Positions 1,492 through 42,425 of a stretch of 64,000 nucleotides of DNA are shown piece by piece. Below the pieces are notes generated by a model. It had not been told where the DNA came from and did no database searches. It saw only the letters and a program-made list of their open reading frames with translations. Position 1 is the stretch's first letter. Each line of letters begins with the position of its first letter. Location: the NCBI GenBank assembly GCA_044378015.1, contig JBILXZ010000001.1, forward strand, positions 145 through 64,144. The letters are read 5' to 3'. Made by a program: the position numbers and the translations under genes. Source of the stretch: Tagaea sp. (GTDB lineage Bacteria; Pseudomonadota; Alphaproteobacteria; CACIAM-22H2).

Positions 1492-2433
1492 ATGGCTGCC
1501 GCTTCTTCCGACCAGACCGACGCGGTGCGCCGCTTCGCCCGCCTGTTCACGGCCCGGCTCGGCGTGCTGCGCAAAGGCCTCTACGGCAGCCGCTTCTCGC
1601 TGGCCGAGGCGCGCGTACTCTACGAGGTCGCGAACCGGCAGGCGCCGACGGCTGGTGCCGTCGCCGCCGATCTCGGCATCGATCCCGGCTATATGAGCCG
1701 AATTTGCAGCGGCCTTGCGCGCGCCAAACTTCTGCGCCGCGCCAAGGTCGCAGGCGACGGCCGCCAGCGCCGTCTCGAACTGACCAAGACCGGGGCTGCC
1801 GCTTTCGCCAAAATCGAAGCCGCTTCGCGCGTCGAGGTGGCGGCGTTGCTGGAACCGCTTGCAGCGCCCGCGCGCCGCACGCTCGTCGAAGCGCTGGCGC
1901 AAGCCGAGACTGTTCTGGATCCGCGCGCGGCGGCGGCACCGCGCGCTTTCGCGCTGCGCGCGCCGCGGCCGGGCGATCTCGGCTGGATCGTGCATCGGCA
2001 CGCGGCGATCTATGCGGCCGAATACGGGTGGGACGCGCATTTCGAAGCCGACGTTGCCGCGATCGTGGCCAAGTTCGCGGCCGCGCACGATCCGGTTTGC
2101 GAGCGCTGCTGGATTGCCGAGGGTGCGGGGGCGATCGTCGGCGCAATCGTCGTCGTGCGCGAAGACAAGGCGACCGCGAGACTGCGGCTGTTCTACCTGG
2201 AGGCAGAAGCGCGCGGCCACGGCTTGGCCCGGCAGTTGGTCGAGACGCTGCTCGGCTTCGCGCGCCAAGCAGGCTATCGGCGCATCGTGCTGTCGACCTA
2301 CGCGAACCTGACAGCTGCGCGCAAACTCTACGAGAAATTCGGGTTTGTGCGCACGGCGCAAAGCCCCAAGCGCCATTACGGCAAAAAGCTTGTCGCCGAA
2401 GACTGGGCGCTCGATCTTTGCCGAGGCGACTGA
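1492..2433 (+). CDS. MarR-type HTH regulator fused to GNAT N-acetyltransferase
   Basis: N-terminal winged-helix (LAEARVLYEVANRQAPTAGAVAADLGIDPGYMSRICSGLARAKLLRR...RRLELTKTG) typical of MarR; C-terminal GNAT fold (RLFYLEAEARGHGLARQLVE...GYRRIVLSTYANLTAARKLYEKFGF). Confidence 0.75.
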   Translation: MAAASSDQTDAVRRFARLFTARLGVLRKGLYGSRFSLAEARVLYEVANRQAPTAGAVAADLGIDPGYMSRICSGLARAKLLRRAKVAGDGRQRRLELTKTGAAAFAKIEAASRVEVAALLEPLAAPARRTLVEALAQAETVLDPRAAAAPRAFALRAPRPGDLGWIVHRHAAIYAAEYGWDAHFEADVAAIVAKFAAAHDPVCERCWIAEGAGAIVGAIVVVREDKATARLRLFYLEAEARGHGLARQLVETLLGFARQAGYRRIVLSTYANLTAARKLYEKFGFVRTAQSPKRHYGKKLVAEDWALDLCRGD

Positions 2434-2716: not shown

Positions 2717-3616
2717 TCAGAATTGGGATTCTGCGACCTTCTGGACGAGATAGTCGCGGAACACGGCGATGCGTTTGGAGCTGCGCAGCTCCTCGGGATA
2801 CACGAAATAGGCCTCGTAGGTCGGCCCCTCGAGCTCGGGCAGGATCTGCACGATGGCGCTGCTCTGCTGGGCGACATAGTCGGGAAAGGCCGCGATGCCG
2901 ATGCCGTTTTCGACCGCGCGCAGGATCGCCGAGACGTTGTTGACCATCAAAGTCGGCGTGCGCTTCTTGCCGCCCGACGTGCCGACCTCGAGCAGCCAGT
3001 TCACGTTCGGGAAAGGCGGATTGGGATCGTCGCCGTAGACGATCAGGCGATGGCGGTCGAGATCGGCCGCCGATTTGGGGGCGCCGTGCTTGGCGAGATA
3101 CGCCTCCGACGCGAACACGTGCACATGCACCGACAGAAGATGGCGCTGGATGAGATCGGCCTGGCGCGGCGGGTGCATGCGGATGGCGCAGTCCGCCTCG
3201 CGCATGCCGAGATCGAGTTCGCGGTCGTCGACGCGCATGCTGAACTGCATGTCCGGATAGAGCTCGGCGAATTCGCGCAAGCGCGGGGCGAGCCACACCG
3301 AACCGAACGCGACGGTCGTGGTCACGCGCAGCAGGCCCGACGGGCGCTCCTTGGTTTCGGCGAGCTGCGCTTCGACGAGCGCGAGCTTGTCGAACACGTC
3401 GCGCACCGTGTTGAACAGCAATTCGCCCTGCTCGGTCAGGATGAGGCCGCGCGCGTGGCGGTGGAAAAGCGAGGCGCGCACCGATTCTTCGAGCGCCGAA
3501 ATCTGGCGGCTCACGGCCGACTGGCTGAGATTGAGCTTCTCGCCGGCATGCGTGAACGAGCCCGCCGCAGCAACCGCATGGAAGATCCGCAGCTTGTCCC
3601 AATCCATCGCCGACAT
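2717..3616 (-). CDS. LysR-family transcriptional regulator
   Basis: N-terminal HTH MDWDKLRIFHAVAAAGSFTHAGEKLNLSQSAVSRQISALEE plus LysR substrate-binding domain; single Cys, so not OxyR; 12 nt downstream of trxB on the same strand. Confidence 0.85.
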   Translation of the reverse strand: MSAMDWDKLRIFHAVAAAGSFTHAGEKLNLSQSAVSRQISALEESVRASLFHRHARGLILTEQGELLFNTVRDVFDKLALVEAQLAETKERPSGLLRVTTTVAFGSVWLAPRLREFAELYPDMQFSMRVDDRELDLGMREADCAIRMHPPRQADLIQRHLLSVHVHVFASEAYLAKHGAPKSAADLDRHRLIVYGDDPNPPFPNVNWLLEVGTSGGKKRTPTLMVNNVSAILRAVENGIGIAAFPDYVAQQSSAIVQILPELEGPTYEAYFVYPEELRSSKRIAVFRDYLVQKVAESQF

Positions 3617-3628
3617 GGTCGCGCCGTC

Positions 3629-4600
3629 CTATTCGGCTGCAGCCGATTGATGGCCCGCTTGCGCGTGGGCGAGGAATTTTTCGGCCTCGAGCGCGGCCAT
3701 GCAGCCCATGCCCGCCGCCGTCACGGCCTGGCGGAACACTTTGTCCTTCACGTCGCCCGCCGCGTAGACGCCGGGCAAGTCGGTCGCCGTCGAATCGGGC
3801 TTTGTCAGGATGTAGCCCTCCGCGTCGAGGGCGATCTGGCCCTTGAAAAGTTCGGTCGCCGGCACGTGGCCGATCGCGACGAACAGACCGTCGACCGCAA
3901 GCGTGCTGCGTTCGCCCGTGACGAGATTCTTGAGCGCCAAGCCCGTCACTGCCGCAGGCGTGCCGGTGCCGAGCACCTCGTCGACGGCCGAATTCCAAAC
4001 GACCTCGATTTTGGGGTGCTTGAGCAGGCGGGCCTGCAGCATCTTTTCGGCGCGCAGCGCGTCGCGGCGATGGATCAGCGTGACCTTGGCGGCGTGGTTG
4101 GTGAGATAGAGCGCTTCTTCGACCGCCGTGTTGCCGCCGCCGACCACGGCCACGTTCTTGCCGCGGAAGAAAAAACCGTCGCAGGTGGCGCACGCCGAAA
4201 CGCCCGCGCCGCGGAATCTGGTTTCCGATTCGAGCCCGAGCCAGCGGGCTTGCGCGCCCGTGCAGATCACGATCGTGTCGGCGATGTAGGTGTCGCCCGA
4301 ATCGCCGGTCGCGACGTAGGGGCGTTTGGAGAGATCGACTTCGACGACGATGTCTTCGAGGATCAGCGTGCCGACATGGGCGCACTGCTTGTACATCTGC
4401 TCCATCAGCCACGGCCCTTGGATCGCCGTCTCGAAACCCGGATAGTTTTCGACGTCGGTCGTGATCGACAATTGGCCGCCGGGTTGGATGCCGCGGACGA
4501 GGATGGGGGAAAGATTGGCGCGCGTCGCGTAAATGGCCGCCGTATAGCCCGCAGGCCCCGAACCAAGGATCAGCATTTTGGTGCGATGGGTTTGCGGCAT
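3629..4600 (-). CDS. trxB: thioredoxin-disulfide reductase
   Basis: KMLILGSGPAGYTAAIYATRANL FAD motif, CATC redox centre (SACATCDGFFF), NADPH motif VAVVGGGNTAVEEAL; start chosen at the internal Met (MPQTHRTKM...) preceded by GGAAAGG, not at the track Met at 4639. Confidence 0.9.
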   Translation of the reverse strand: MPQTHRTKMLILGSGPAGYTAAIYATRANLSPILVRGIQPGGQLSITTDVENYPGFETAIQGPWLMEQMYKQCAHVGTLILEDIVVEVDLSKRPYVATGDSGDTYIADTIVICTGAQARWLGLESETRFRGAGVSACATCDGFFFRGKNVAVVGGGNTAVEEALYLTNHAAKVTLIHRRDALRAEKMLQARLLKHPKIEVVWNSAVDEVLGTGTPAAVTGLALKNLVTGERSTLAVDGLFVAIGHVPATELFKGQIALDAEGYILTKPDSTATDLPGVYAAGDVKDKVFRQAVTAAGMGCMAALEAEKFLAHAQAGHQSAAAE

Positions 4601-4681
4601 CGGACGACCTTTCCGTCTCGGGCTATGCGTCTGGCGCAAGCCTAGCAGGCATGCCTCGGCGTTGGGAAGCAGGCGCCGGAT

Positions 4682-5659
4682 TTATCCCCAGCCAAATTTC
4701 TGCCGCAACAGGCGGGCGGCCCGCGCCGTATCGTCGGGCGGGACATAGGTCCAATGCTCGAAGCGGCCTTCGAACGGGCGCGTAAAGCCTTTGGCCTGCA
4801 TGGTGGCCTGAAACGCGGCAATGCGGCCCGAACGGCCTTCAAGGGCGGCGACGAACACGGGCTTGCCGGTCGAAAGCGCTTCGCTGGTCATCGACACGGA
4901 ATCCTCGGTCACAACGATGCCGTCCGCCAATGCCAACAGCCCGAAATAGGGATTCTCGCCCTCGCCGTCCCAAGCATAGCCGCCGAGCGCGCGCACGGTC
5001 TTCACAAGCGCTTCGCGGGCCGGCGGGTCGGTACGACGCGACGGCGTCAATGCAAGGCCGCAACCGCCTGCCGCCAAACTTTCGAGGCCAGCCGCCAGAC
5101 GCGCGACGGCGCCCTCCGTCATCTGGAAGCGGCGCCAGCCGTTCGAACCGCCCAGGATCACGGCAATCAGCGGCCGCTTGAGAGCGGTCAATCGCGGCGC
5201 CCAAACTTCGGCTGCGGCGGCGAGCTTCGCCGGCGTCACATGGTGAAGCGCCATTTGCGTTTCGATGACGTTGGCCCCGACGATTTCGTCGTGCGCAGGC
5301 ACGATCACCGCATCGAGCCAAGCGACCGGGACCGCCGGACGCTGCACGTGAAGGGCAAATACCCTGCCGCCGCTGCGCCGCTTCATCGCAACGCCGATGG
5401 GCGCGCAACGCGAACCCAGCGTAATCGCCATGTCGGGCCAAGGTTCGGACAGATCGGGGCTGTCGGCGCGCAACATCGCGAGCGGATCGCCGCGCACGAG
5501 GGCCACTTCGGGGAGCCACGAATAAGGCGGGCGAAACGCCACATCCTTGAATTCGAAGGCGAGGCCCAGGGCCTCGGCAATGCCGCGGCATTGCGCTTTC
5601 ATGCCGACCTGCCCCGGGCTGATAATCCAGGCGGTTTTGGGGGCGGAGGGGGTTGTCAT
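4682..5659 (-). CDS. ELM1-like (mitochondrial fission ELM1 / DUF1022) family protein
   Basis: Size and motifs (AWIISPGQVGMKAQCRGIAEALGL...VILGGSNG...PSRRT) resemble the ELM1/GT-B-like family common in alphaproteobacteria; called from memory of the family only. Confidence 0.55.
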   Translation of the reverse strand: MTTPSAPKTAWIISPGQVGMKAQCRGIAEALGLAFEFKDVAFRPPYSWLPEVALVRGDPLAMLRADSPDLSEPWPDMAITLGSRCAPIGVAMKRRSGGRVFALHVQRPAVPVAWLDAVIVPAHDEIVGANVIETQMALHHVTPAKLAAAAEVWAPRLTALKRPLIAVILGGSNGWRRFQMTEGAVARLAAGLESLAAGGCGLALTPSRRTDPPAREALVKTVRALGGYAWDGEGENPYFGLLALADGIVVTEDSVSMTSEALSTGKPVFVAALEGRSGRIAAFQATMQAKGFTRPFEGRFEHWTYVPPDDTARAARLLRQKFGWG

Positions 5660-5778: not shown

Positions 5779-6282
5779 ATGCGCGGGCACAAGCTTGACG
5801 ACGTGGATCGCCAGATTCTCCACGATCTCCAGAACGACGGGCGAATGACCAATGTCGAGCTTGCGCGCCGGGCCGGTGTTTCGGCCCCGCCCTGCTTGCG
5901 CCGCGTGCGCGTGCTCGAGGAAGCCAATGTGATCCGCGGCTATCACGCCGACATCGACCCGCATGCGCTGGGTTTCGGGGTGGCTGTATTCGCGTTCGTC
6001 AGCCTCAAGAGCCAAGCCGATGCCGATCTGCGGGCTTTCCAGGCGATCATCGATTCCTGGCCGATGGTGCGGGAATGCCACATGCTGACCGGGGAAACCG
6101 ATTTCCTCATCAAAGTCGTAGCGCAGGATTGGGACGCGTACGAAAAATTCCTGACGACGCAGCTGACGGCAGCCCCCAATGTCAGCAACGTCAAGTCGGC
6201 GCTGACGATCCGCACGACCAAAAACCAGCCGGGCGTGCCGATCGAGGCCAAACAGCCCGACGCCAAAGCGGCGCGCAAATAG
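5779..6282 (+). CDS. Lrp/AsnC-family transcriptional regulator
   Basis: LDDVDRQILHDLQNDGRMTNVELARRAGVSAPPCLRRVRVLEE HTH plus RAM (ACT-like) C-terminal domain. Confidence 0.85.
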   Translation: MRGHKLDDVDRQILHDLQNDGRMTNVELARRAGVSAPPCLRRVRVLEEANVIRGYHADIDPHALGFGVAVFAFVSLKSQADADLRAFQAIIDSWPMVRECHMLTGETDFLIKVVAQDWDAYEKFLTTQLTAAPNVSNVKSALTIRTTKNQPGVPIEAKQPDAKAARK

Positions 6283-6650
6283 CCGTTATTCCCCGGGCTT
6301 CAGCACGCGCAGATCGCCGCTTGCCGAATCGCGTTCGACGATTTTCATATGGGCTGCCCACCGCGCGACCGCTTCGAGCGGCAGGTCGCGGCGCGCCAAC
6401 CGACGGCCCAGCGCTTGTGCGCGCGCCTCGGTCCAAGCGAAAAACGCGACGATTTCGGGTGCCGCATCGTCGAACGGTTCGGGAGCGCCATTCATTTCGA
6501 CGGAATCGGTCGAACGAAGACGCCTGCACGCAAAGGTTTGTGCCTTGGTGAGCGAGAAGCGATTTCTCTACTTCGAGTATGCCGAAGAAGCAGAACGCGA
6601 ATCAAATGTTGAATTCTACGCCGGCTCGGCGAGCGGCGGCGTCAAGCCGC

Positions 6651-8318
6651 TCATGCCAGTTTCGTCGCGTCCTTGACGATGCGCATCGCCAAAACGCCTT
6701 GGCGGCCGCGTATATCGGTCGTCTCCTCGGGAAAACCAGAAAAATCGAGGCCGCTGGCGCGCGCAGCGTCGGTCGAGACCAAAAGATCGGCACCGTATGT
6801 TTTGGTGAGCGCTTCGAGGCGACTTGCCGTATTGACCGTGTCGCCGATGGCGGTGAATTGGCGCACGTCGCCGTAGCCCATCTCGCCGACGATGGCGGGG
6901 CCCGTATGGATGCCGATGCCGATCCGCAACGGCGCGCCGAGATCGTGCGCAAGGGCAGCGTTGAGGGCGGCGAGCCGTTCGATCATGGCGCGAGCCCCGG
7001 CAAGCGCTTCGCGCGTGCCTTGCGCGGGCCCGCTTTCGACGCCGAACAGCGCGACGATGCCGTCGCCCACGAATTTGTCGATGCGCCCGCCCGCCGTTTC
7101 GATCGCAGCCCCCATTTCCGCGAAATAGCGGTTGAGCAGAAAGACCACGTCGAACGGCAACTTGTTTTCCGACAACGTCGTGAAGCCGCGCAGATCGGCG
7201 AACATCACGGCGATGGTTTTCTCGACCCCCGAATTGTCGCGCGAGCGGCGCTGGGCAACGGATGCGGAGCCGACAGCGGCGGGCAGCAGCGGCACGATCG
7301 CGACGTCGCCTTCGGCGCGCGCCTGGCATGCCAGACGCACGCTCGGCGGCGCCGCGACGCGCGCAAGCACGGCCAACTCGTCGGCGGCGGCCGGCGACAG
7401 GTTTTCGCTCCCGCGCTCGACGCGCACGCGGCAAGTCGAGCAGCGGCCCCGCCCGCCGCATACGGAAGCGTGCGCAATCCGTCCTTGGCGGCTCGCCTCG
7501 AGCAGCGTCGTGCCGCGCGCGACGGCGACCGTCGCGTCGCGCGGGTAGGCCACGACCGCCCGCCCGCCGCGATCCGCATGCCACGCGCGCACGCGCCGGG
7601 CGGCGAACACGGCGGCGATCGACAAAGCCCACAGCGCCAGCACGCCGCTCTGGATGCGCTCGAGAGTCGCGGCATCGTCGGCATTCGGCAAACGATGGCG
7701 CTCGGCAAGGCCAGCGCGCCAAGCCGGGTCGGCGAACAATGCGGCGACTTCGCGGCTGCCGGCGAGATATCCCGCCACGGCAAGGGCGCCGAGGATCGTC
7801 GCCGCCGCCAACAGCCACGGCTGCCAGCGCGCGTAGAGCGGCTTCAAGCGCAGCCAGTAATGCACGCCCGCGCAGCCGTGCAGCCAGACCAGCAGCAGGC
7901 CCGAGACGAGCAGCAGCCCGCCCGACGGGTCGATCTGGGTCGTTGCGACCGCGACCGACGCATGCGAGGGCAGCATGCCGAACAGCAACGCGCCGAAGCG
8001 CACCGGAACCACGTGACCCGCGAGGATCGGCACGACGGCCAAGCCCGCGACAAGCTGCACAGTTTCGCCGCGCGACAGGGTGGCGAGATCGCGCCGCAGA
8101 TAGACGGTCCGCAGCGACAGCCCGAAATGCGCGGCGAGCGACAAATAGAGAAGGACGCGAACCGGCGGCAGCCCCACGACCGAGAACATCGCCTGGGCAA
8201 AGGCATCGGCCGCCGCCAAAGAAACGTTCATCAGCGCGTGGTTGGCCAGATGCAGCGCGACATAGACGAACAGCGCGAGGCCGGAAGCCAGCCGCACCTG
8301 GCGCGCCGCGATCCTCAT
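6651..8318 (-). CDS. membrane-anchored 2Fe-2S ferredoxin-domain adenylate/guanylate cyclase (class III)
   Basis: C-terminal CYC domain (IAVMFADLRGFTTLSE...FVGDGIVALFG...IGIHTGPAIVGEMGYGDVRQFTAIGDTVNTASRLE); central plant-type 2Fe-2S motif (CGGRGRCSTCRV...RLACQA); N-terminal multi-TM region with paired His; ATG at 8318 overlaps the upstream stop (ATGA). The first 253 codons of the 808-aa track ORF are rejected because they overlap the plsC frame. Confidence 0.8.
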   Translation of the reverse strand: MRIAARQVRLASGLALFVYVALHLANHALMNVSLAAADAFAQAMFSVVGLPPVRVLLYLSLAAHFGLSLRTVYLRRDLATLSRGETVQLVAGLAVVPILAGHVVPVRFGALLFGMLPSHASVAVATTQIDPSGGLLLVSGLLLVWLHGCAGVHYWLRLKPLYARWQPWLLAAATILGALAVAGYLAGSREVAALFADPAWRAGLAERHRLPNADDAATLERIQSGVLALWALSIAAVFAARRVRAWHADRGGRAVVAYPRDATVAVARGTTLLEASRQGRIAHASVCGGRGRCSTCRVRVERGSENLSPAAADELAVLARVAAPPSVRLACQARAEGDVAIVPLLPAAVGSASVAQRRSRDNSGVEKTIAVMFADLRGFTTLSENKLPFDVVFLLNRYFAEMGAAIETAGGRIDKFVGDGIVALFGVESGPAQGTREALAGARAMIERLAALNAALAHDLGAPLRIGIGIHTGPAIVGEMGYGDVRQFTAIGDTVNTASRLEALTKTYGADLLVSTDAARASGLDFSGFPEETTDIRGRQGVLAMRIVKDATKLA

Positions 8319-9055
8319 CGCGCGTCGTCGGCCGAGGCGTGGCCTTCTTCGAGGCGCCTCGTGGCCGTTTCGATGCGCGTCTCGAGTTCGCGCATGAACT
8401 CTGCGCGCTTGAGGCCGGCCGGAATCGCGTCGAGCACCTCGACCGTGATGAGGCCGGGCTTCTTGGCGAACGTGCGCCTGCCCCAGAACAGGCCGGAGTT
8501 GAGCGCGACCGGCACGCACGGCATGTCGAGCTTGCTGTAGAGCGCCATGACGCCGGGATGGTAGGGCCAGTCTGCGGCGTCGCTGCGCACCGGCGTGCGC
8601 GTCCCTTGCGGAAAGATCACGATCTGGCGGCCTTCCGCGATCGCTTCTTGCGCCATCGTCAGCATGCGCTTCAAGGCCGCTCCGCCGCCTTTGCGGTCGA
8701 CCGGGATCATTTTCTGCTTTTGCGCATGCCATCCGTAGAGCGGGATCGACAGAAGCTCCTTCTTCATCACGTAGGTCGGATCGCCGCACAGCGCGTAGAA
8801 GATCAGCGTGTCCCACGCCGACTGGTGCTTGCACGCGACAAGCGCCGGGCCTTCGAGCAGGTCGACCCGGCCGACGAGGCGGTGTTCGAGCCTGCAGATG
8901 TGCTTGAGACCCCACACGACGGTCTTGGCCCAGACCCGCGCGATGAAATGCACGCCGCGTCGATCCATGAAATGGCAGGGCAACGAAGCGATCAGCAGCG
9001 CCGTCGTGGCGCCGAAAAACCAGACATTGAACAGAAACGACCGCAGCTGGATCAT
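8315..9055 (-). CDS. lysophospholipid (1-acyl-sn-glycerol-3-phosphate) acyltransferase, PlsC family
   Basis: Acyltransferase H-X4-D box (ACKHQSAWDTLIF) and FPQGTR motif; ATG at 9055 overlaps the upstream stop (ATGA). Confidence 0.8.
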   Translation of the reverse strand: MIQLRSFLFNVWFFGATTALLIASLPCHFMDRRGVHFIARVWAKTVVWGLKHICRLEHRLVGRVDLLEGPALVACKHQSAWDTLIFYALCGDPTYVMKKELLSIPLYGWHAQKQKMIPVDRKGGGAALKRMLTMAQEAIAEGRQIVIFPQGTRTPVRSDAADWPYHPGVMALYSKLDMPCVPVALNSGLFWGRRTFAKKPGLITVEVLDAIPAGLKRAEFMRELETRIETATRRLEEGHASADDAR

Positions 9056-9648
9056 GGGGGGACATCCGCAAAAGCAAGATAGGGGCGCAGCAATGCGCCG
9101 ACGTATTTGTGGTACTCGGCCTGCAGCAGCGCGTAGGTTCCCGGCCAGCGCCACCATTCGTCGATATGGAAGTTTTCGGGGTAGACGGGCTGGGCGATCA
9201 GATCGATGTCCGGCATCGCGCGGCGGAACTCGAGCGTCGCGCGCCGCAGATGGTAGTTGGCCGTCACGAGCCGCAGCGAGGCGATCTTCTCGCGCGCGAC
9301 GAAGGCGGCGGCCTCGCGCGCATTGCCTTGGGTCGAATCCGCGTCGTAGCCGAGTTCGACGCAGCATTCGAGAGCGCCCGGCCCCTGGCGCGCCACGCGC
9401 AGCAGCTCCTGCAGCTCGACATTGCGGTTGACGCCAGAGACCAGCAGCTTTTTGGCCTTGCCCTCGGCCATCAGACGCAGGCCCTCGCGCAGGCGCAGCT
9501 GGCCGCCCGTCAGCACCACGATCGCGTCGGTCGCGCGCGCATCGACCGGGCCCTCGCGCGGGATCGCGGCGGCGAACCACACGAGCCCGCCCAAATAGAT
9601 CAAGCCCAACGCGGCCGCCGCAGCGCCCAAGCGCAGGAGCGTCGCCAT
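9052..9648 (-). CDS. DUF218 (YdcF/ElyC/SanA-family) envelope protein
   Basis: N-terminal TM, then DAIVVLTGG...KLLVSGV...GYDADSTQGNAREAAAF, characteristic of DUF218. Confidence 0.7.
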   Translation of the reverse strand: MATLLRLGAAAAALGLIYLGGLVWFAAAIPREGPVDARATDAIVVLTGGQLRLREGLRLMAEGKAKKLLVSGVNRNVELQELLRVARQGPGALECCVELGYDADSTQGNAREAAAFVAREKIASLRLVTANYHLRRATLEFRRAMPDIDLIAQPVYPENFHIDEWWRWPGTYALLQAEYHKYVGALLRPYLAFADVPP

Positions 9649-9654
9649 TTCCCG

Positions 9655-10197
9655 TCAACCCAGCAGCGCGGCCACGGCCGCGCCGAGATCTTCGTGCACG
9701 CCGACAGGCAGCACGGCATCGGGCAGACCCGCAGCCAAGGTTTTGGCGCCGTGGCCGGTGCGCACGAGATGGCGCGGGCAGCCGATCGCCGCGGCAGCTT
9801 GCAGATCGCGCAGACTGTCGCCGACGAAGGGTGTGGCGGCCGCGTCGGCCGCGAACATGGCGATGGCCTCGATCAGCATGCCGGGGGCCGGCTTGCGGCG
9901 CGTCGAAACCGGGCCGGGCGCGTCGGGGCAATGGAAGATCGCGTCGAGTTTCGCGCCCTCGCGCGCCAGCCCGTCGCGCAGGGCCTCGTGGATGCGCGCC
10001 AGCATCGCTTCGTCGAAGATGCCGCGCCCGATCGGCGACTGGTTCGTGCACACGGCCACGGCATATCCCGCGCGATTGAGGCGCGCGACGGCCGCCGCCG
10101 CTCCGGGCAGGAACACAAGCTCGCCCGGATGCTTCACATAGTCGGCACGATCGACGTTCAGCACGCCGTCGCGATCGAGGAGGACGAGTCGGGCCAT
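9655..10197 (-). CDS. gmhB: D-glycero-beta-D-manno-heptose-1,7-bisphosphate 7-phosphatase (HAD-IIIA)
   Basis: LDRDGVLN, CTNQSPIGRG, RRKPAPGM, GDSLRDLQAA and VRTG motifs align with E. coli GmhB. Confidence 0.85.
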   Translation of the reverse strand: MARLVLLDRDGVLNVDRADYVKHPGELVFLPGAAAAVARLNRAGYAVAVCTNQSPIGRGIFDEAMLARIHEALRDGLAREGAKLDAIFHCPDAPGPVSTRRKPAPGMLIEAIAMFAADAAATPFVGDSLRDLQAAAAIGCPRHLVRTGHGAKTLAAGLPDAVLPVGVHEDLGAAVAALLG

Positions 10198-10209: not shown

Positions 10210-11079
10210 CTACAGGATACGCGCGAGATTTCGCATCACCGTGCCGTAGGCAGCGGCGGCCGCGACTGCGGTTGCGGCGAACGGCACGCTTGCGAGCAGC
10301 AGCCAATCGCTCCACCCCAACGCCGGCAGCGGAAAGGCGAGCGCGGCGCTGCCGCTTGCCACCGCCGAGGCGGCGACCAACACGAGCGCGGCCCCCGCAG
10401 CCCCGAGGCCGGCACCTGCAAAAGCCAGCCGCATCGCCGCGCGCGCGAACTGCACGGCGATGTAGGCGTCGGGCGCGCCGACCAGATGCAGAAGATCGAC
10501 CGCCTCGCGATGCACGGCCAGACCCGCGCGCGTTGCAAACGCGACGCAGCTTGCAGCCGCCAGCGCCACCGCCGACAGCACGATCGCCGCCACGAGCCCC
10601 GCCGCGCGCGCCAGCGCCAAGAAACCGCCGAGCCAGCGCCCATGGTCGTCGATCGCCGCATCCGGCACGGCCGCCTCCAAACGCCGGCCCAACGCCGCGA
10701 GATTGGGCGTGGCGCCCGCGACAAGCCGCACGTCGATCAGCACCGGGATCGGCAGATCCTGGAGATTGCCGGCGCCAAGCCACGGGCCCAAAAGCGCCTC
10801 GGCCGCCGCACGCGAAATCTGCGTCGCCGCCGCGACCGCCGGGTCGGCGCGCAGCAGCGCCAAAGCGGCGGCCGGATCGGCGCCGGCAGGCAGCTCGACC
10901 GTGAGCGTGCCCGCGAAATTCGCCTGCCAGCGCTTGGCCGTGCCCGACAAAGCGAGGGCGAGACCGAGCGCGAGCGTGGCGAGGAACGCAAGAGCCGCGA
11001 CAACGGCCGCAATCCAGCGCCGTTCGCGGTCGCGTTCCAACGCAAGCTCGCTGCCGCGCCCGAAACCGAAGCCCGCCAT
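10210..11079 (-). CDS. ftsX: cell-division ABC transporter permease FtsX
   Basis: Directly downstream of ftsE; N-terminal TM, periplasmic region and C-terminal TM bundle typical of FtsX; start MAGFGFGRG chosen inside the longer track ORF. Confidence 0.75.
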   Translation of the reverse strand: MAGFGFGRGSELALERDRERRWIAAVVAALAFLATLALGLALALSGTAKRWQANFAGTLTVELPAGADPAAALALLRADPAVAAATQISRAAAEALLGPWLGAGNLQDLPIPVLIDVRLVAGATPNLAALGRRLEAAVPDAAIDDHGRWLGGFLALARAAGLVAAIVLSAVALAAASCVAFATRAGLAVHREAVDLLHLVGAPDAYIAVQFARAAMRLAFAGAGLGAAGAALVLVAASAVASGSAALAFPLPALGWSDWLLLASVPFAATAVAAAAAYGTVMRNLARIL

Positions 11080-11084
11080 CGTCG

Positions 11085-11753
11085 CTACGCCGCCTTCGCG
11101 AGTTGCACGAGGGCTCCGGCTTCCAGGCGCAGTTCGGGATGGCGCGAGTCGCGCACCAACTGCATATTGTGCGTCGCGACCACGATCGTCGTGCCGAGGC
11201 GGTTGAGCTCTTCGAACAGCCGCATCAAGCGCAGCGCGATGCGGTCGTCGACGTTGCCGGTGGGCTCGTCCGCGATCAGAAGCTTGGGCCGCCCGATCAC
11301 CGCGCGCGCGATCGCCACGCGCTGCTTTTGCCCGCCCGACAAAGTCGGCGGCAGCGCGCCGAGATGGTCGCCCAACCCGACCCACACCAGCAACTCGGCC
11401 GCGTGCTCGCGCAGCTGCGCCTCGTCTGCCCCCTGCACGCGCAGAGGCAAGGCCACGTTGTCGATGACCGAAAGATGATCGAGCAGGCGGAAATCCTGGA
11501 ATACCGTGCCGATGCGTCGGCGCAAGCCCGGCAGATCGCGCCGCGCCATGCGGGCGACGTCGCGCCCGAACATATGGACGGTGCCGCGGCTCGGCAGGCG
11601 TGCGAGATAAAGCAGCGAAAGCAGCGACGATTTGCCCGCCCCCGACGCGCCGGTCAGAAAATGGAAACTGCCGGGCTGCAGCGCGAAGCTCACGTCGCGC
11701 AGCACTTCGGGCCCCAGGCCGTAACGCAAGCCCACTTGTTGGAAGACGATCAT
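11085..11753 (-). CDS. ftsE: cell-division ATP-binding protein FtsE
   Basis: Walker A GASGAGKSS, signature LSGGQKQRVAIARA, Walker B LLIADEPTGNVD; start taken at MIVFQQVGLRY (the track Met at 11774 is 7 codons upstream). Confidence 0.9.
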   Translation of the reverse strand: MIVFQQVGLRYGLGPEVLRDVSFALQPGSFHFLTGASGAGKSSLLSLLYLARLPSRGTVHMFGRDVARMARRDLPGLRRRIGTVFQDFRLLDHLSVIDNVALPLRVQGADEAQLREHAAELLVWVGLGDHLGALPPTLSGGQKQRVAIARAVIGRPKLLIADEPTGNVDDRIALRLMRLFEELNRLGTTIVVATHNMQLVRDSRHPELRLEAGALVQLAKAA

Positions 11754-11832
11754 TGGCAGGGCGGATGCTGGCACGCGCGGGCAAGACGGCGCAAGCTTGC
11801 CCCCGTGCCGTCTAAGGCCCTATAAAAGCCGT

Positions 11833-40791: not shown

Positions 40792-42192
40792 CTAATCCTC
40801 CAGCACCCAGGTGTCTTTGGTGCCGCCGCCTTGCGAGGAATTGACGACGAGCGAACCTGCGCGCAACGCCACGCGCGTGAGGCCGCCGGGCACGAGCTTC
40901 ACGTCCTTGCCGACCAGCAGATAGGGCCTGAGATCGACGTGGCGCGGGGCCACGCCCTCGTCGACGAAAGTGGGGCATGTCGACAGCGCCAGCGTGGGCT
41001 GGGCGATGTAGTTGTCGGGATCGGCGAGGATGCGCAGGCGGAAATCCTCGATCTCGGCCTTGGTCGATTTCGGGCCCACGAGCATGCCGTAGCCGCCCGA
41101 GCCGTGCACTTCCTTCACCACCAGCTCGGCCAGGTGCTCGAGGGCGTATTTGAGGTCGTCCTTGTTGCGCAGCGTGTAGGTCGGCACGTTGGCGAGCTTG
41201 GGCTCTTCGCCCAGATAGAAGCGCACCATCTCCGGCACGTAAGGATAGACCGATTTGTCGTCGGCAACGCCCGTGCCCACCGCGTTGGCAAGGTTGACGT
41301 TGCCGCGGCGGTAGGCGTCGAACAGGCCGCGCACGCCGAGAACGCTGTCGGGATTGAAGGCGGCGGGATCGATGAAGGCGTCGTCCAGGCGCCGATAGAT
41401 CGTGTCGACGCGCTTGGGGCCCGCGACCGTGCGCATGTAGACGAAACCGTCGTCCACGAACATGTCCTGGCCTTCGACCAGCTCCACGCCCATCTGCTCG
41501 GCGAGGAAAACGTGCTCGAAATAGGCCGAATTGTAGGCCCCCGGCGTCATCACGACGACCGTGGGCTCGTCCTTGTTGAGGCAGTTTTCCGGCGGCAGCG
41601 AGCGCAGCGACTTGAGGAGTTCGTCGGGATAGTGGCCCACGGGACGCACGCGGTTGGCGCTGAACAGCTCGGGAAAAAGCCGCATCATGGCTTCGCGGTT
41701 CTCGAGCATGTAGGACACGCCCGACGGCGTGCGCGCGTTGTCTTCGAGCACGTAGAACTGGTTCTCGGACACGCGCACCACGTCGATGCCCGCGATGTGC
41801 GTGTAGACGTTGCCCGGCAGCGCCACGCCGATCATCTCGGGCCGGTACTGCGAATTGGCGACGACCAGCTCCCGCGGGATCTTGCCCGCGCGCACGATGT
41901 TCATGCCGTGATAGACGTCGTAGAGAAAAGCGTTGAGCGCGCGAACGCGCTGGACGAGCCCTTCGGACAGGGCGTGCCATTCGGCGCCCGTAATCACGCG
42001 CGGGATGAGATCGAACGGAATAAGCCGCTCGGGATCGCCGCCCTCGCCGTAGACGGCGAAGGTAATGCCGAGGCGGCGGAAAAGCAGATCGGCCTCGCGG
42101 CGCTTGGCGTCCGTCTGGCTTGCGGGCATGCGCTCGAGCCATTCCGCCAATTCGGCGTAGGCCGCGCGAACCGCACCGTCCGCCGCGCTCAT
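40792..42192 (-). CDS. circularly permuted ATP-grasp type 2 (DUF404/DUF407) amidoligase
   Basis: Conserved CP-ATP-grasp blocks (NAFLYDVYHG, ARTPSGVSYMLENR, VKEVHGSGGYGMLVGP); start placed at internal ATG 42192, because the track ORF begins with TTG at 42324. Confidence 0.85.
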   Translation of the reverse strand: MSAADGAVRAAYAELAEWLERMPASQTDAKRREADLLFRRLGITFAVYGEGGDPERLIPFDLIPRVITGAEWHALSEGLVQRVRALNAFLYDVYHGMNIVRAGKIPRELVVANSQYRPEMIGVALPGNVYTHIAGIDVVRVSENQFYVLEDNARTPSGVSYMLENREAMMRLFPELFSANRVRPVGHYPDELLKSLRSLPPENCLNKDEPTVVVMTPGAYNSAYFEHVFLAEQMGVELVEGQDMFVDDGFVYMRTVAGPKRVDTIYRRLDDAFIDPAAFNPDSVLGVRGLFDAYRRGNVNLANAVGTGVADDKSVYPYVPEMVRFYLGEEPKLANVPTYTLRNKDDLKYALEHLAELVVKEVHGSGGYGMLVGPKSTKAEIEDFRLRILADPDNYIAQPTLALSTCPTFVDEGVAPRHVDLRPYLLVGKDVKLVPGGLTRVALRAGSLVVNSSQGGGTKDTWVLED

Positions 42193-42425
42193 CTCGTCGA
42201 AAGCGGCCCCTGCCGAGGACTGCGTCTGCCTCACCCCATCCTCCTTGGCTTGCCCACCCGCAACAAGCGCGGCCGGTCGCTTCCCGTCGCCTTGGCATGC
42301 AACGCCCGGACCAGACTCTGGCAATTCGTACAGGGCTTTGCAACCAATCGAATCGCGGGCAATGGAATCGCCGAAAGGGATGAGCTAGGGTCCCGGCTTC
42401 GCGATTTGCCACAAAAGAGGTCGTT

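Follow-up and report, generated by a model that had tools for sequence, protein, structure and literature searches.

A probable CyaC-type adenylate cyclase with a cytochrome b-like membrane anchor and a 2Fe-2S ferredoxin domain in Tagaea sp.

What does a cyclase sense when it carries both a histidine-rich membrane domain and an iron-sulfur module, and which cyclic nucleotide does it make? The question is raised by a minus-strand gene in the window analysed here, a 64,000-nt stretch of contig JBILXZ010000001.1 from Tagaea sp. (Alphaproteobacteria), which an initial annotation had described as a candidate redox-sensing adenylate or guanylate cyclase. Translation of 6651-8318 on the minus strand gives a protein of 555 amino acids (aa), and all the motifs that had been quoted for it are found there: HLANHAL contains H23 and H27, AAHFGLSL contains H64, LAGHVVP contains H102, WLHGCAGVHYW contains H147 and H153, CGGRGRCSTC contains C287, C293 and C296, and RLAC contains C331. 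A six-helix membrane domain (aa 1-250) is followed by a Fer2 ferredoxin domain (aa 253-343) and a class III cyclase domain (aa 364-548). The gene, its upstream neighbour and its domains are:

8315..9055, minus strand: PlsC-like acyltransferase gene, upstream context and not part of the sensor (Pfam; its TGA overlaps the cyclase ATG)
6651..8318, minus strand: probable CyaC-type adenylate cyclase, complete coding sequence, 555 aa plus stop (translation; 555-aa full-length homologues; collinearity with CyaC of Sinorhizobium meliloti)
7569..8318, minus strand: membrane domain, aa 1-250 (AlphaFold2 domain model; hydrophobic cores and Lys/Arg distribution; Foldseek; TIGR02046)
7290..7562, minus strand: 2Fe-2S ferredoxin domain, aa 253-343 (Pfam Fer2; four invariant Cys; PDB sequence matches with Cys aligned)
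7458..7460, 7440..7442, 7431..7433 and 7326..7328, minus strand: codons of C287, C293, C296 and C331, respectively, predicted cluster ligands
7230..7289, minus strand: low-confidence linker from ferredoxin to cyclase, aa 344-363 (pLDDT <50 for aa 345-362; poorly conserved sequence)
6675..7229, minus strand: class IIIb cyclase catalytic domain, aa 364-548 (Pfam Guanylate_cyc; invariant residues; alignment to CyaC; structural matches)

Where does the gene begin? At 8318 an ATG shares bases with the TGA that closes the acyltransferase frame upstream (ATGA), the nearest homologues are 555 aa long and span 100% of the query, and an 808-aa open reading frame (6651-9077) is an in-frame extension over the acyltransferase gene, which is itself recognised by Pfam in another frame. 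The start at 8318, which had been preferred over that of the 808-aa frame, is therefore right. The 808-aa frame was rejected as a high-GC artefact, as were large open reading frames on the opposite strand or in other frames (e.g. 6579-8540 and 7262-9082, both on the plus strand). A full-length AlphaFold2 model of the 555-aa protein has a mean pLDDT of 87 and is weak only at the cluster-binding loop, the linker (aa 345-362) and one short loop.

Conservation was assessed in three sets: one of 121 sequences with at least 47% identity, one of 66 proteins taken from named genomes, and one of 27 divergent membrane domains at 27-41% identity that include those of S. meliloti and R. etli. The catalytic domain, recognised by Pfam as Guanylate_cyc (PF00211, aa 367-507, E 2.8e-18), carries the metal-binding residues D375 and D419, the substrate-specifying residues K415 and T489, and the transition-state residues N496 and R500, all six of them invariant in the 121- and 66-sequence sets. 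K415, T489, N496 and R500 align with K410, T484, N491 and R495 of S. meliloti CyaC, positions that published work on CyaC has mutated and that are numbered here after PMC10463352. Given the Lys/Thr pair, ATP rather than GTP is the expected substrate, and the signature of guanylate cyclases (Glu plus a Cys/Gly-type residue at the base-specifying positions) is absent. These sequence features indicate a class IIIb adenylate cyclase rather than a guanylate cyclase, so that only the first of the two activities originally offered stands. The best structural matches of the catalytic domain are likewise class IIIb adenylate cyclases, namely 3r5g and the Spirulina platensis CyaC entries 1wc0-1wc6 (TM-score 0.84-0.87 normalised to target, 32-34% identity). 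S. platensis CyaC, P. aeruginosa CyaB and the photoactivated cyclases share the catalytic fold and the Lys/Thr pair with the protein described here, but they rely on different sensor domains or on bicarbonate and lack any heme or Fe-S module.

The central domain is matched by Pfam Fer2 (PF00111, aa 260-335, E 2.4e-10), and its four cysteines, spaced C-x5-C-x2-C-x34-C, are invariant in the 121- and 66-sequence sets. The motif is thus intact rather than degenerate, a point that the initial annotation had marked for checking. The same annotation called the ferredoxin "plant-type", a label that does not hold: the spacing differs from C-x4-C-x2-C-x29-C, and the NCBIfam model TIGR02008 (fdx_plant) matches only 1 of the 66 family members, whereas fdx_isc and nqrF match all 66. 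The best PDB sequence matches are ISC ferredoxin, putidaredoxin, adrenodoxin and NqrF, which belong to the same Fer2 fold family, share the C-x5-C-x2-C spacing, and have cluster ligands that align with the cysteines here. The present domain differs from them in that its fourth Cys follows after 34 residues and in that it sits between a membrane domain and a cyclase.

What kind of membrane domain precedes these two modules? Because a Foldseek search with the full-length model returned cyclase domains only, we modelled aa 1-250 separately. The AlphaFold2 model (pLDDT 93.1, pTM 0.86) has six long hydrophobic helices, predicted as transmembrane (TM) helices at aa 4-31, 51-74, 83-113, 131-156, 162-195 and 213-250, and two short helices (aa 34-48 and 119-129) in predicted periplasmic loops; the predicted topology, N-in and C-in, fits the Lys/Arg distribution. 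Against the PDB, the sole credible matches were diheme cytochrome b subunits: SdhC of Chloroflexus (9lay_C, probability 0.98), FrdC of Wolinella (2bs4_C, 2bs3_C and 1e7p_C, probability 0.89-0.97, TM-score 0.55-0.57) and the D. gigas QFR (5xmj_C). As a group these reached probabilities of 0.57-0.98 and TM-scores of 0.36-0.57 at E-values of 0.33-1.4, which are not significant, so that the fold assignment rests on probability and TM-score; every other match had a TM-score of 0.25 or less. At the fold level, the model supports an anchor that is an SdhC/FrdC-like cytochrome b bundle of six TM helices. The initial annotation had envisaged a Fer2 domain, a Guanylate_cyc domain and an N-terminal family of the cytochrome b561-like or ferric reductase-like kind; Pfam recovered the first two, and the anchor resembles the SdhC/FrdC diheme cytochromes b instead.

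The link in sequence between this anchor and SdhC is weak but consistent. No Pfam family covers aa 1-250, and the domain used as a single sequence finds no match among PDB sequences. NCBIfam gives a faint match of aa 3-114 to TIGR02046 (sdhC_b558, E 0.098), a model that 30 of the 66 family members match (lowest E 1.5e-4), and a profile built from the divergent membrane domains matches SdhC of M. smegmatis (6lum_C, E 0.007). Since the protein scores 12.3 bits against a TIGR02046 cut-off of 96, and since no sdhAB partner genes lie near the cyclase gene, the anchor shares the SdhC fold but is not a member of that family. Type-B SQR cytochromes b (Wolinella succinogenes FrdC, Chloroflexus aurantiacus SdhC and Bacillus SdhC b558) have the same helical-bundle fold (probability 0.89-0.98, TM-score 0.50-0.57) and, like the anchor, place four His on four separate helices at similar spacing, but identity to them is only about 15%. 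The anchor also differs in having a sixth helix, which returns the chain to the cytoplasm, and in its fusion to a ferredoxin and a cyclase, which points to a sensor rather than a respiratory enzyme. A profile search also suggested a likeness of TM6 plus Fer2 to the N-terminal helix plus Fer2 of NqrF; the single sequence aligned only the Fer2 part with NqrF and not TM6, and we regard the likeness as a hydrophobic-helix artefact.

The strongest constraint on the membrane domain comes from its histidines. Exactly four of them, H23, H64, H102 and H147, show no variation in any of the three sets. Of the roughly 252 membrane-domain columns in the divergent alignment only 8 never vary, and His occupies 4 of them (hypergeometric probability 1.4e-5); W145 and G151 are invariant as well. 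H27 falls short of invariance, with conservation of 90% or more; conservation drops to about 70% at H153, and H119 is mostly Tyr in homologues. The initial annotation had listed conserved His residues in these motifs, and its list stands for the four invariant positions and, at the lower level just given, for H27, but fails for H153. It had also proposed looking for the N-terminal histidines in orthologues, where the four are present and invariant down to about 27% identity. The positions of their codons are:

8250..8252, minus strand: His23, outer half of TM1, predicted distal heme b ligand with His102 (invariance; helix depth; pairing by analogy with FrdC/SdhC)
8127..8129, minus strand: His64, inner half of TM2, predicted proximal heme b ligand with His147 (invariance; aligned with a His of 6lum_C)
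8013..8015, minus strand: His102, outer half of TM3, predicted distal heme ligand (invariance; aligned with a His of S. meliloti CyaC)
7878..7880, minus strand: His147, inner half of TM4 in a conserved W-x-H-G-C motif, predicted proximal heme ligand (invariance; also His in S. meliloti CyaC)

In helices that run outward, H23 and H102 are reached after about 19 residues; in those that run inward, H64 and H147 are reached after 13-16. From this helix depth and the analogy with FrdC, we predict that H23 and H102 hold a distal heme near the outer face and that H64 and H147 hold a proximal one near the inner face, a pairing that matches the pattern in Wolinella FrdC.

Is a protein of this design already known? 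BLASTP against the annotated cyaC of the S. meliloti chromosome (CP090106.1) gave 38% identity over 553 aa (E 2e-119), collinear end to end. S. meliloti CyaC (SMc01818) has the same domain order and nearly the same length (557 versus 555 aa), and the four membrane His, the four Fer2 Cys and the six catalytic residues are all common to both proteins, although identity is only 38%, is lower in the anchor, and H153 is replaced by Trp in CyaC. Beltz et al. 2016 (PMC4821796) described 'cluster 1' bacterial class IIIb cyclases that have a ferredoxin between anchor and catalytic domain, with a six-helix anchor akin to the cytochrome b of fumarate reductase/succinate dehydrogenase and four precisely spaced His, and predicted two hemes for these anchors; S. 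meliloti CyaC is a member of that cluster. PMC10463352, in summarising Wissig et al. 2019, attributes two heme B and a 2Fe-2S cluster to S. meliloti CyaC; ubiquinone is reported there to be able to oxidise or reduce the hemes, and oxidation to activate cAMP synthesis; the activity is described there as being under quinone-dependent redox control, with cAMP as the product. PMC9552081 is a further source on the published properties of CyaC and its family.

Full-length homology, a Fer2 domain with four Cys, a six-helix anchor with four His, a cytochrome b fold and the class IIIb residues are all found in the Tagaea protein, and these features of sequence and fold support its placement among the CyaC-type diheme-B/2Fe-2S class IIIb adenylate cyclases. 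The original proposal of a redox-sensing cyclase with heme-ligating His and a Fer2 module is thus supported, by analogy, through the full-length homology to S. meliloti CyaC and the conserved ligands. The idea is correct but already published, the architecture having been predicted in 2016 and a quinone-responsive homologue described in 2019. ArcB, with which CyaC is compared in PMC10463352, is a functional analogue only: both link gene regulation to how oxidised or reduced the respiratory quinones are, but ArcB is a non-homologous histidine kinase that senses via cysteine disulfides and has another output.

We propose, with a probability of roughly 0.8, that the protein is a CyaC-type class IIIb adenylate cyclase that is membrane-integral and forms homodimers, its function being transferred from a homologue at 38% identity. 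By homology to S. meliloti CyaC, the two His pairs would bind a distal and a proximal heme B, and these hemes would exchange electrons with the membrane quinone/quinol pool. In the sequence and the model, the bundle leads into the cytoplasmic 2Fe-2S ferredoxin domain, with its four Cys ligands intact, and then into a complete ATP-specific catalytic domain. The redox state of the heme/Fe-S chain would set cyclase activity, as in CyaC, where oxidation by quinone is activating, and the cAMP output would report the oxidised or reduced state of the respiratory chain.

The sensor domain belongs to a large family that reaches beyond Alphaproteobacteria. A database search with the protein returned more than 7000 matching proteins, the best 120 of which all have the Fer2 and cyclase domains, and the membrane-domain profile matched 2868 clusters at 50% identity with E of 0.001 or less, 849 of them with E of 1e-30 or less. 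Full-length matches to this profile are 547-626 aa long; shorter ones grade continuously in length and resemble fragments cut off at contig ends. Matches in genomes are mainly from Alphaproteobacteria (Rhodospirillales, Kiloniellales, Stellaceae and Rhizobiaceae), and some matching contigs are labelled Rokubacteria, Methylomirabilota or Betaproteobacteria. The closest relatives, at 84% identity, come from Telmatospirillum/Rhodospirillaceae genomes assembled from metagenomes.

Does the neighbourhood of the gene hint at what the signal serves? The cyclase gene closes a compact string of genes on one strand, ftsE-ftsX-HAD phosphatase-DUF218-acyltransferase-cyclase, and it is convergent with a gene for an Lrp/AsnC regulator. 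Within the string, the acyltransferase ATG likewise forms an ATGA overlap with the stop codon of the DUF218 gene before it. Only the three closest loci (65-84% identity) share this order, which is not found in some 80 more distant loci, nor in R. etli or Thalassobaculum. Across 85 loci, no conserved neighbour gene of the cyclase was found; an ABC-exporter gene cluster recurs at about 20-29 of the 85 and is absent at the locus here. A tblastn search of the window for a Crp/Clr-like cAMP receptor gene, with an approximate E. coli CRP query, gave only noise inside unrelated genes. In S. meliloti, cyaC lies between genes for LysR-type and TetR-type (CycR) regulators, and because both are absent at the Tagaea locus, the downstream wiring may differ between the two organisms. 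These neighbours are a feature of the S. meliloti locus and do not define the family; the R. etli and Thalassobaculum homologues also lack them.

Might the cofactors respond to something other than the quinone pool? In signalling proteins elsewhere, heme and 2Fe-2S groups sense gases or oxidants, and the accounts of CyaC drawn on here leave room for such a role of its Fer2 cluster. Hemes or an Fe-S cluster that respond to a diffusible cue (O2, NO, CO, reactive oxygen species or iron status) would make the cyclase a reporter of gas or oxidative stress. We think this improbable, given that the four invariant His imply two hemes of the SdhC/FrdC kind, both bis-His and six-coordinate and both lacking an open coordination site for gas, and that CyaC is reported to respond to ubiquinone (PMC10463352). 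The invariant residues also weigh against the idea that the membrane domain is mainly an anchor and that control acts on the catalytic domain, for instance through bicarbonate/CO2 in the manner of other Lys/Thr class IIIb enzymes. This idea draws on the closest solved catalytic domains, which are those of the bicarbonate-responsive S. platensis CyaC, and on K415/T489 as the class IIIb signature. A plain anchor, however, would not keep four His, W145, G151 and the full set of Fer2 ligands invariant across 2868 clusters, and bicarbonate control could coexist with redox control instead of replacing it; as a substitute for redox sensing we find it highly improbable.

Could the cyclase be the lesser part of the protein? 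With two hemes followed by an Fe-S cluster at the cytoplasmic face, the cofactors line up as in the wire of succinate:quinone oxidoreductases, and one may picture an enzyme whose primary task is to pass electrons from quinol through the hemes and the 2Fe-2S cluster to a soluble acceptor, with the cyclase secondary or inactive. We find this barely credible: all six catalytic residues of the cyclase are invariant, no partner oxidoreductase gene occurs as a conserved neighbour, and CyaC is reported to make cAMP (PMC10463352). A more speculative proposal, and in our view an unlikely one, takes the 2Fe-2S domain as a second, independent input that would respond to cytoplasmic reductants, to oxygen or nitric oxide damage, or to iron status, so that membrane and cytoplasmic signals would be integrated, and reads the translational coupling to the ftsEX string as a connection to envelope and lipid biogenesis. 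Were this so, a redox signal would be tied to envelope and lipid biogenesis in this lineage.

We return, then, to a CyaC-type cyclase under quinone-linked redox control as the preferred reading. Its practical outcomes are a corrected gene start, annotation of the product as a CyaC-type class IIIb adenylate cyclase, and a map of residues for mutagenesis that comprises the four His, the four Cys and the six catalytic residues. While this adds little new biology, the orthologue could serve as an extra test case for how a heme/Fe-S signal is transferred to the catalytic dimer.

On the minus strand, the cyclase gene stands last in a tightly packed string of six genes, listed here in gene order:

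11085-11774, minus strand: ftsE
about 10210-11100, minus strand: ftsX-like gene, with no Pfam match at E 0.001
9655-10197, minus strand: HAD phosphatase gene
9052-9648, minus strand: DUF218 gene
8315-9055, minus strand: acyltransferase gene
6651-8318, minus strand: CyaC-type adenylate cyclase gene

Because start and stop codons overlap as ATGA at the final two junctions (DUF218/acyltransferase and acyltransferase/cyclase), the sequence suggests that the string forms a single operon with translational coupling. This order is kept only in the three closest relatives, loci L001, L004 and L005.

Other genes of the window, two of them adjoining minus-strand genes, are as follows:

2717-3616, minus strand: LysR-type regulator gene
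3629-4639, minus strand: thioredoxin-reductase-like pyridine nucleotide-disulfide oxidoreductase gene
5779-6282, plus strand: Lrp/AsnC regulator gene
40792-42324, minus strand: 510-aa ORF, class judged by eye

Downstream of the Lrp/AsnC gene lies a bacterial gene (4682-5659, minus strand) with a strong full-length match to the Pfam family 'Mitochondrial fission ELM1' (E 3e-93). ORFs of 648 and 569 aa that overlap the LysR-type and oxidoreductase genes matched no family and appear to be artefacts of high GC content. In an ORF at 1492-2433 (plus strand), an N-terminal MarR-type DNA-binding domain is fused to a GNAT acetyltransferase domain. Judged by eye, the 510-aa ORF is a candidate ATP-grasp-type protein with circular permutation, and another long ORF that looks conserved comes after it on that strand; spurious tblastn matches of E. 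coli CRP fell in the region of these two ORFs.

The S. meliloti strain Ak57 record with an annotated cyaC (CP090106.1) is labelled 'plasmid pSymB' in a plasmid collection; a length of 3.72 Mb and a cyaC gene named SMc01818 point to the chromosome under a wrong label. Two IS4-family transposase genes lie there between cyaC and a TetR-type gene annotated rutR, which occupies the place that the literature assigns to cycR.

What recurs beside related cyclase genes is an ABC-exporter cluster (ATPase, ABC-2 permease and ABC_transp_aux/DUF4340 proteins), not present in the window. It adjoins the cyclase gene in L002 and L003, as well as in about 20-29 of 85 related loci, is divergent from it in L002/L003, the sole locus with gene calls, and is the only recurrent neighbour across the cyclase family.
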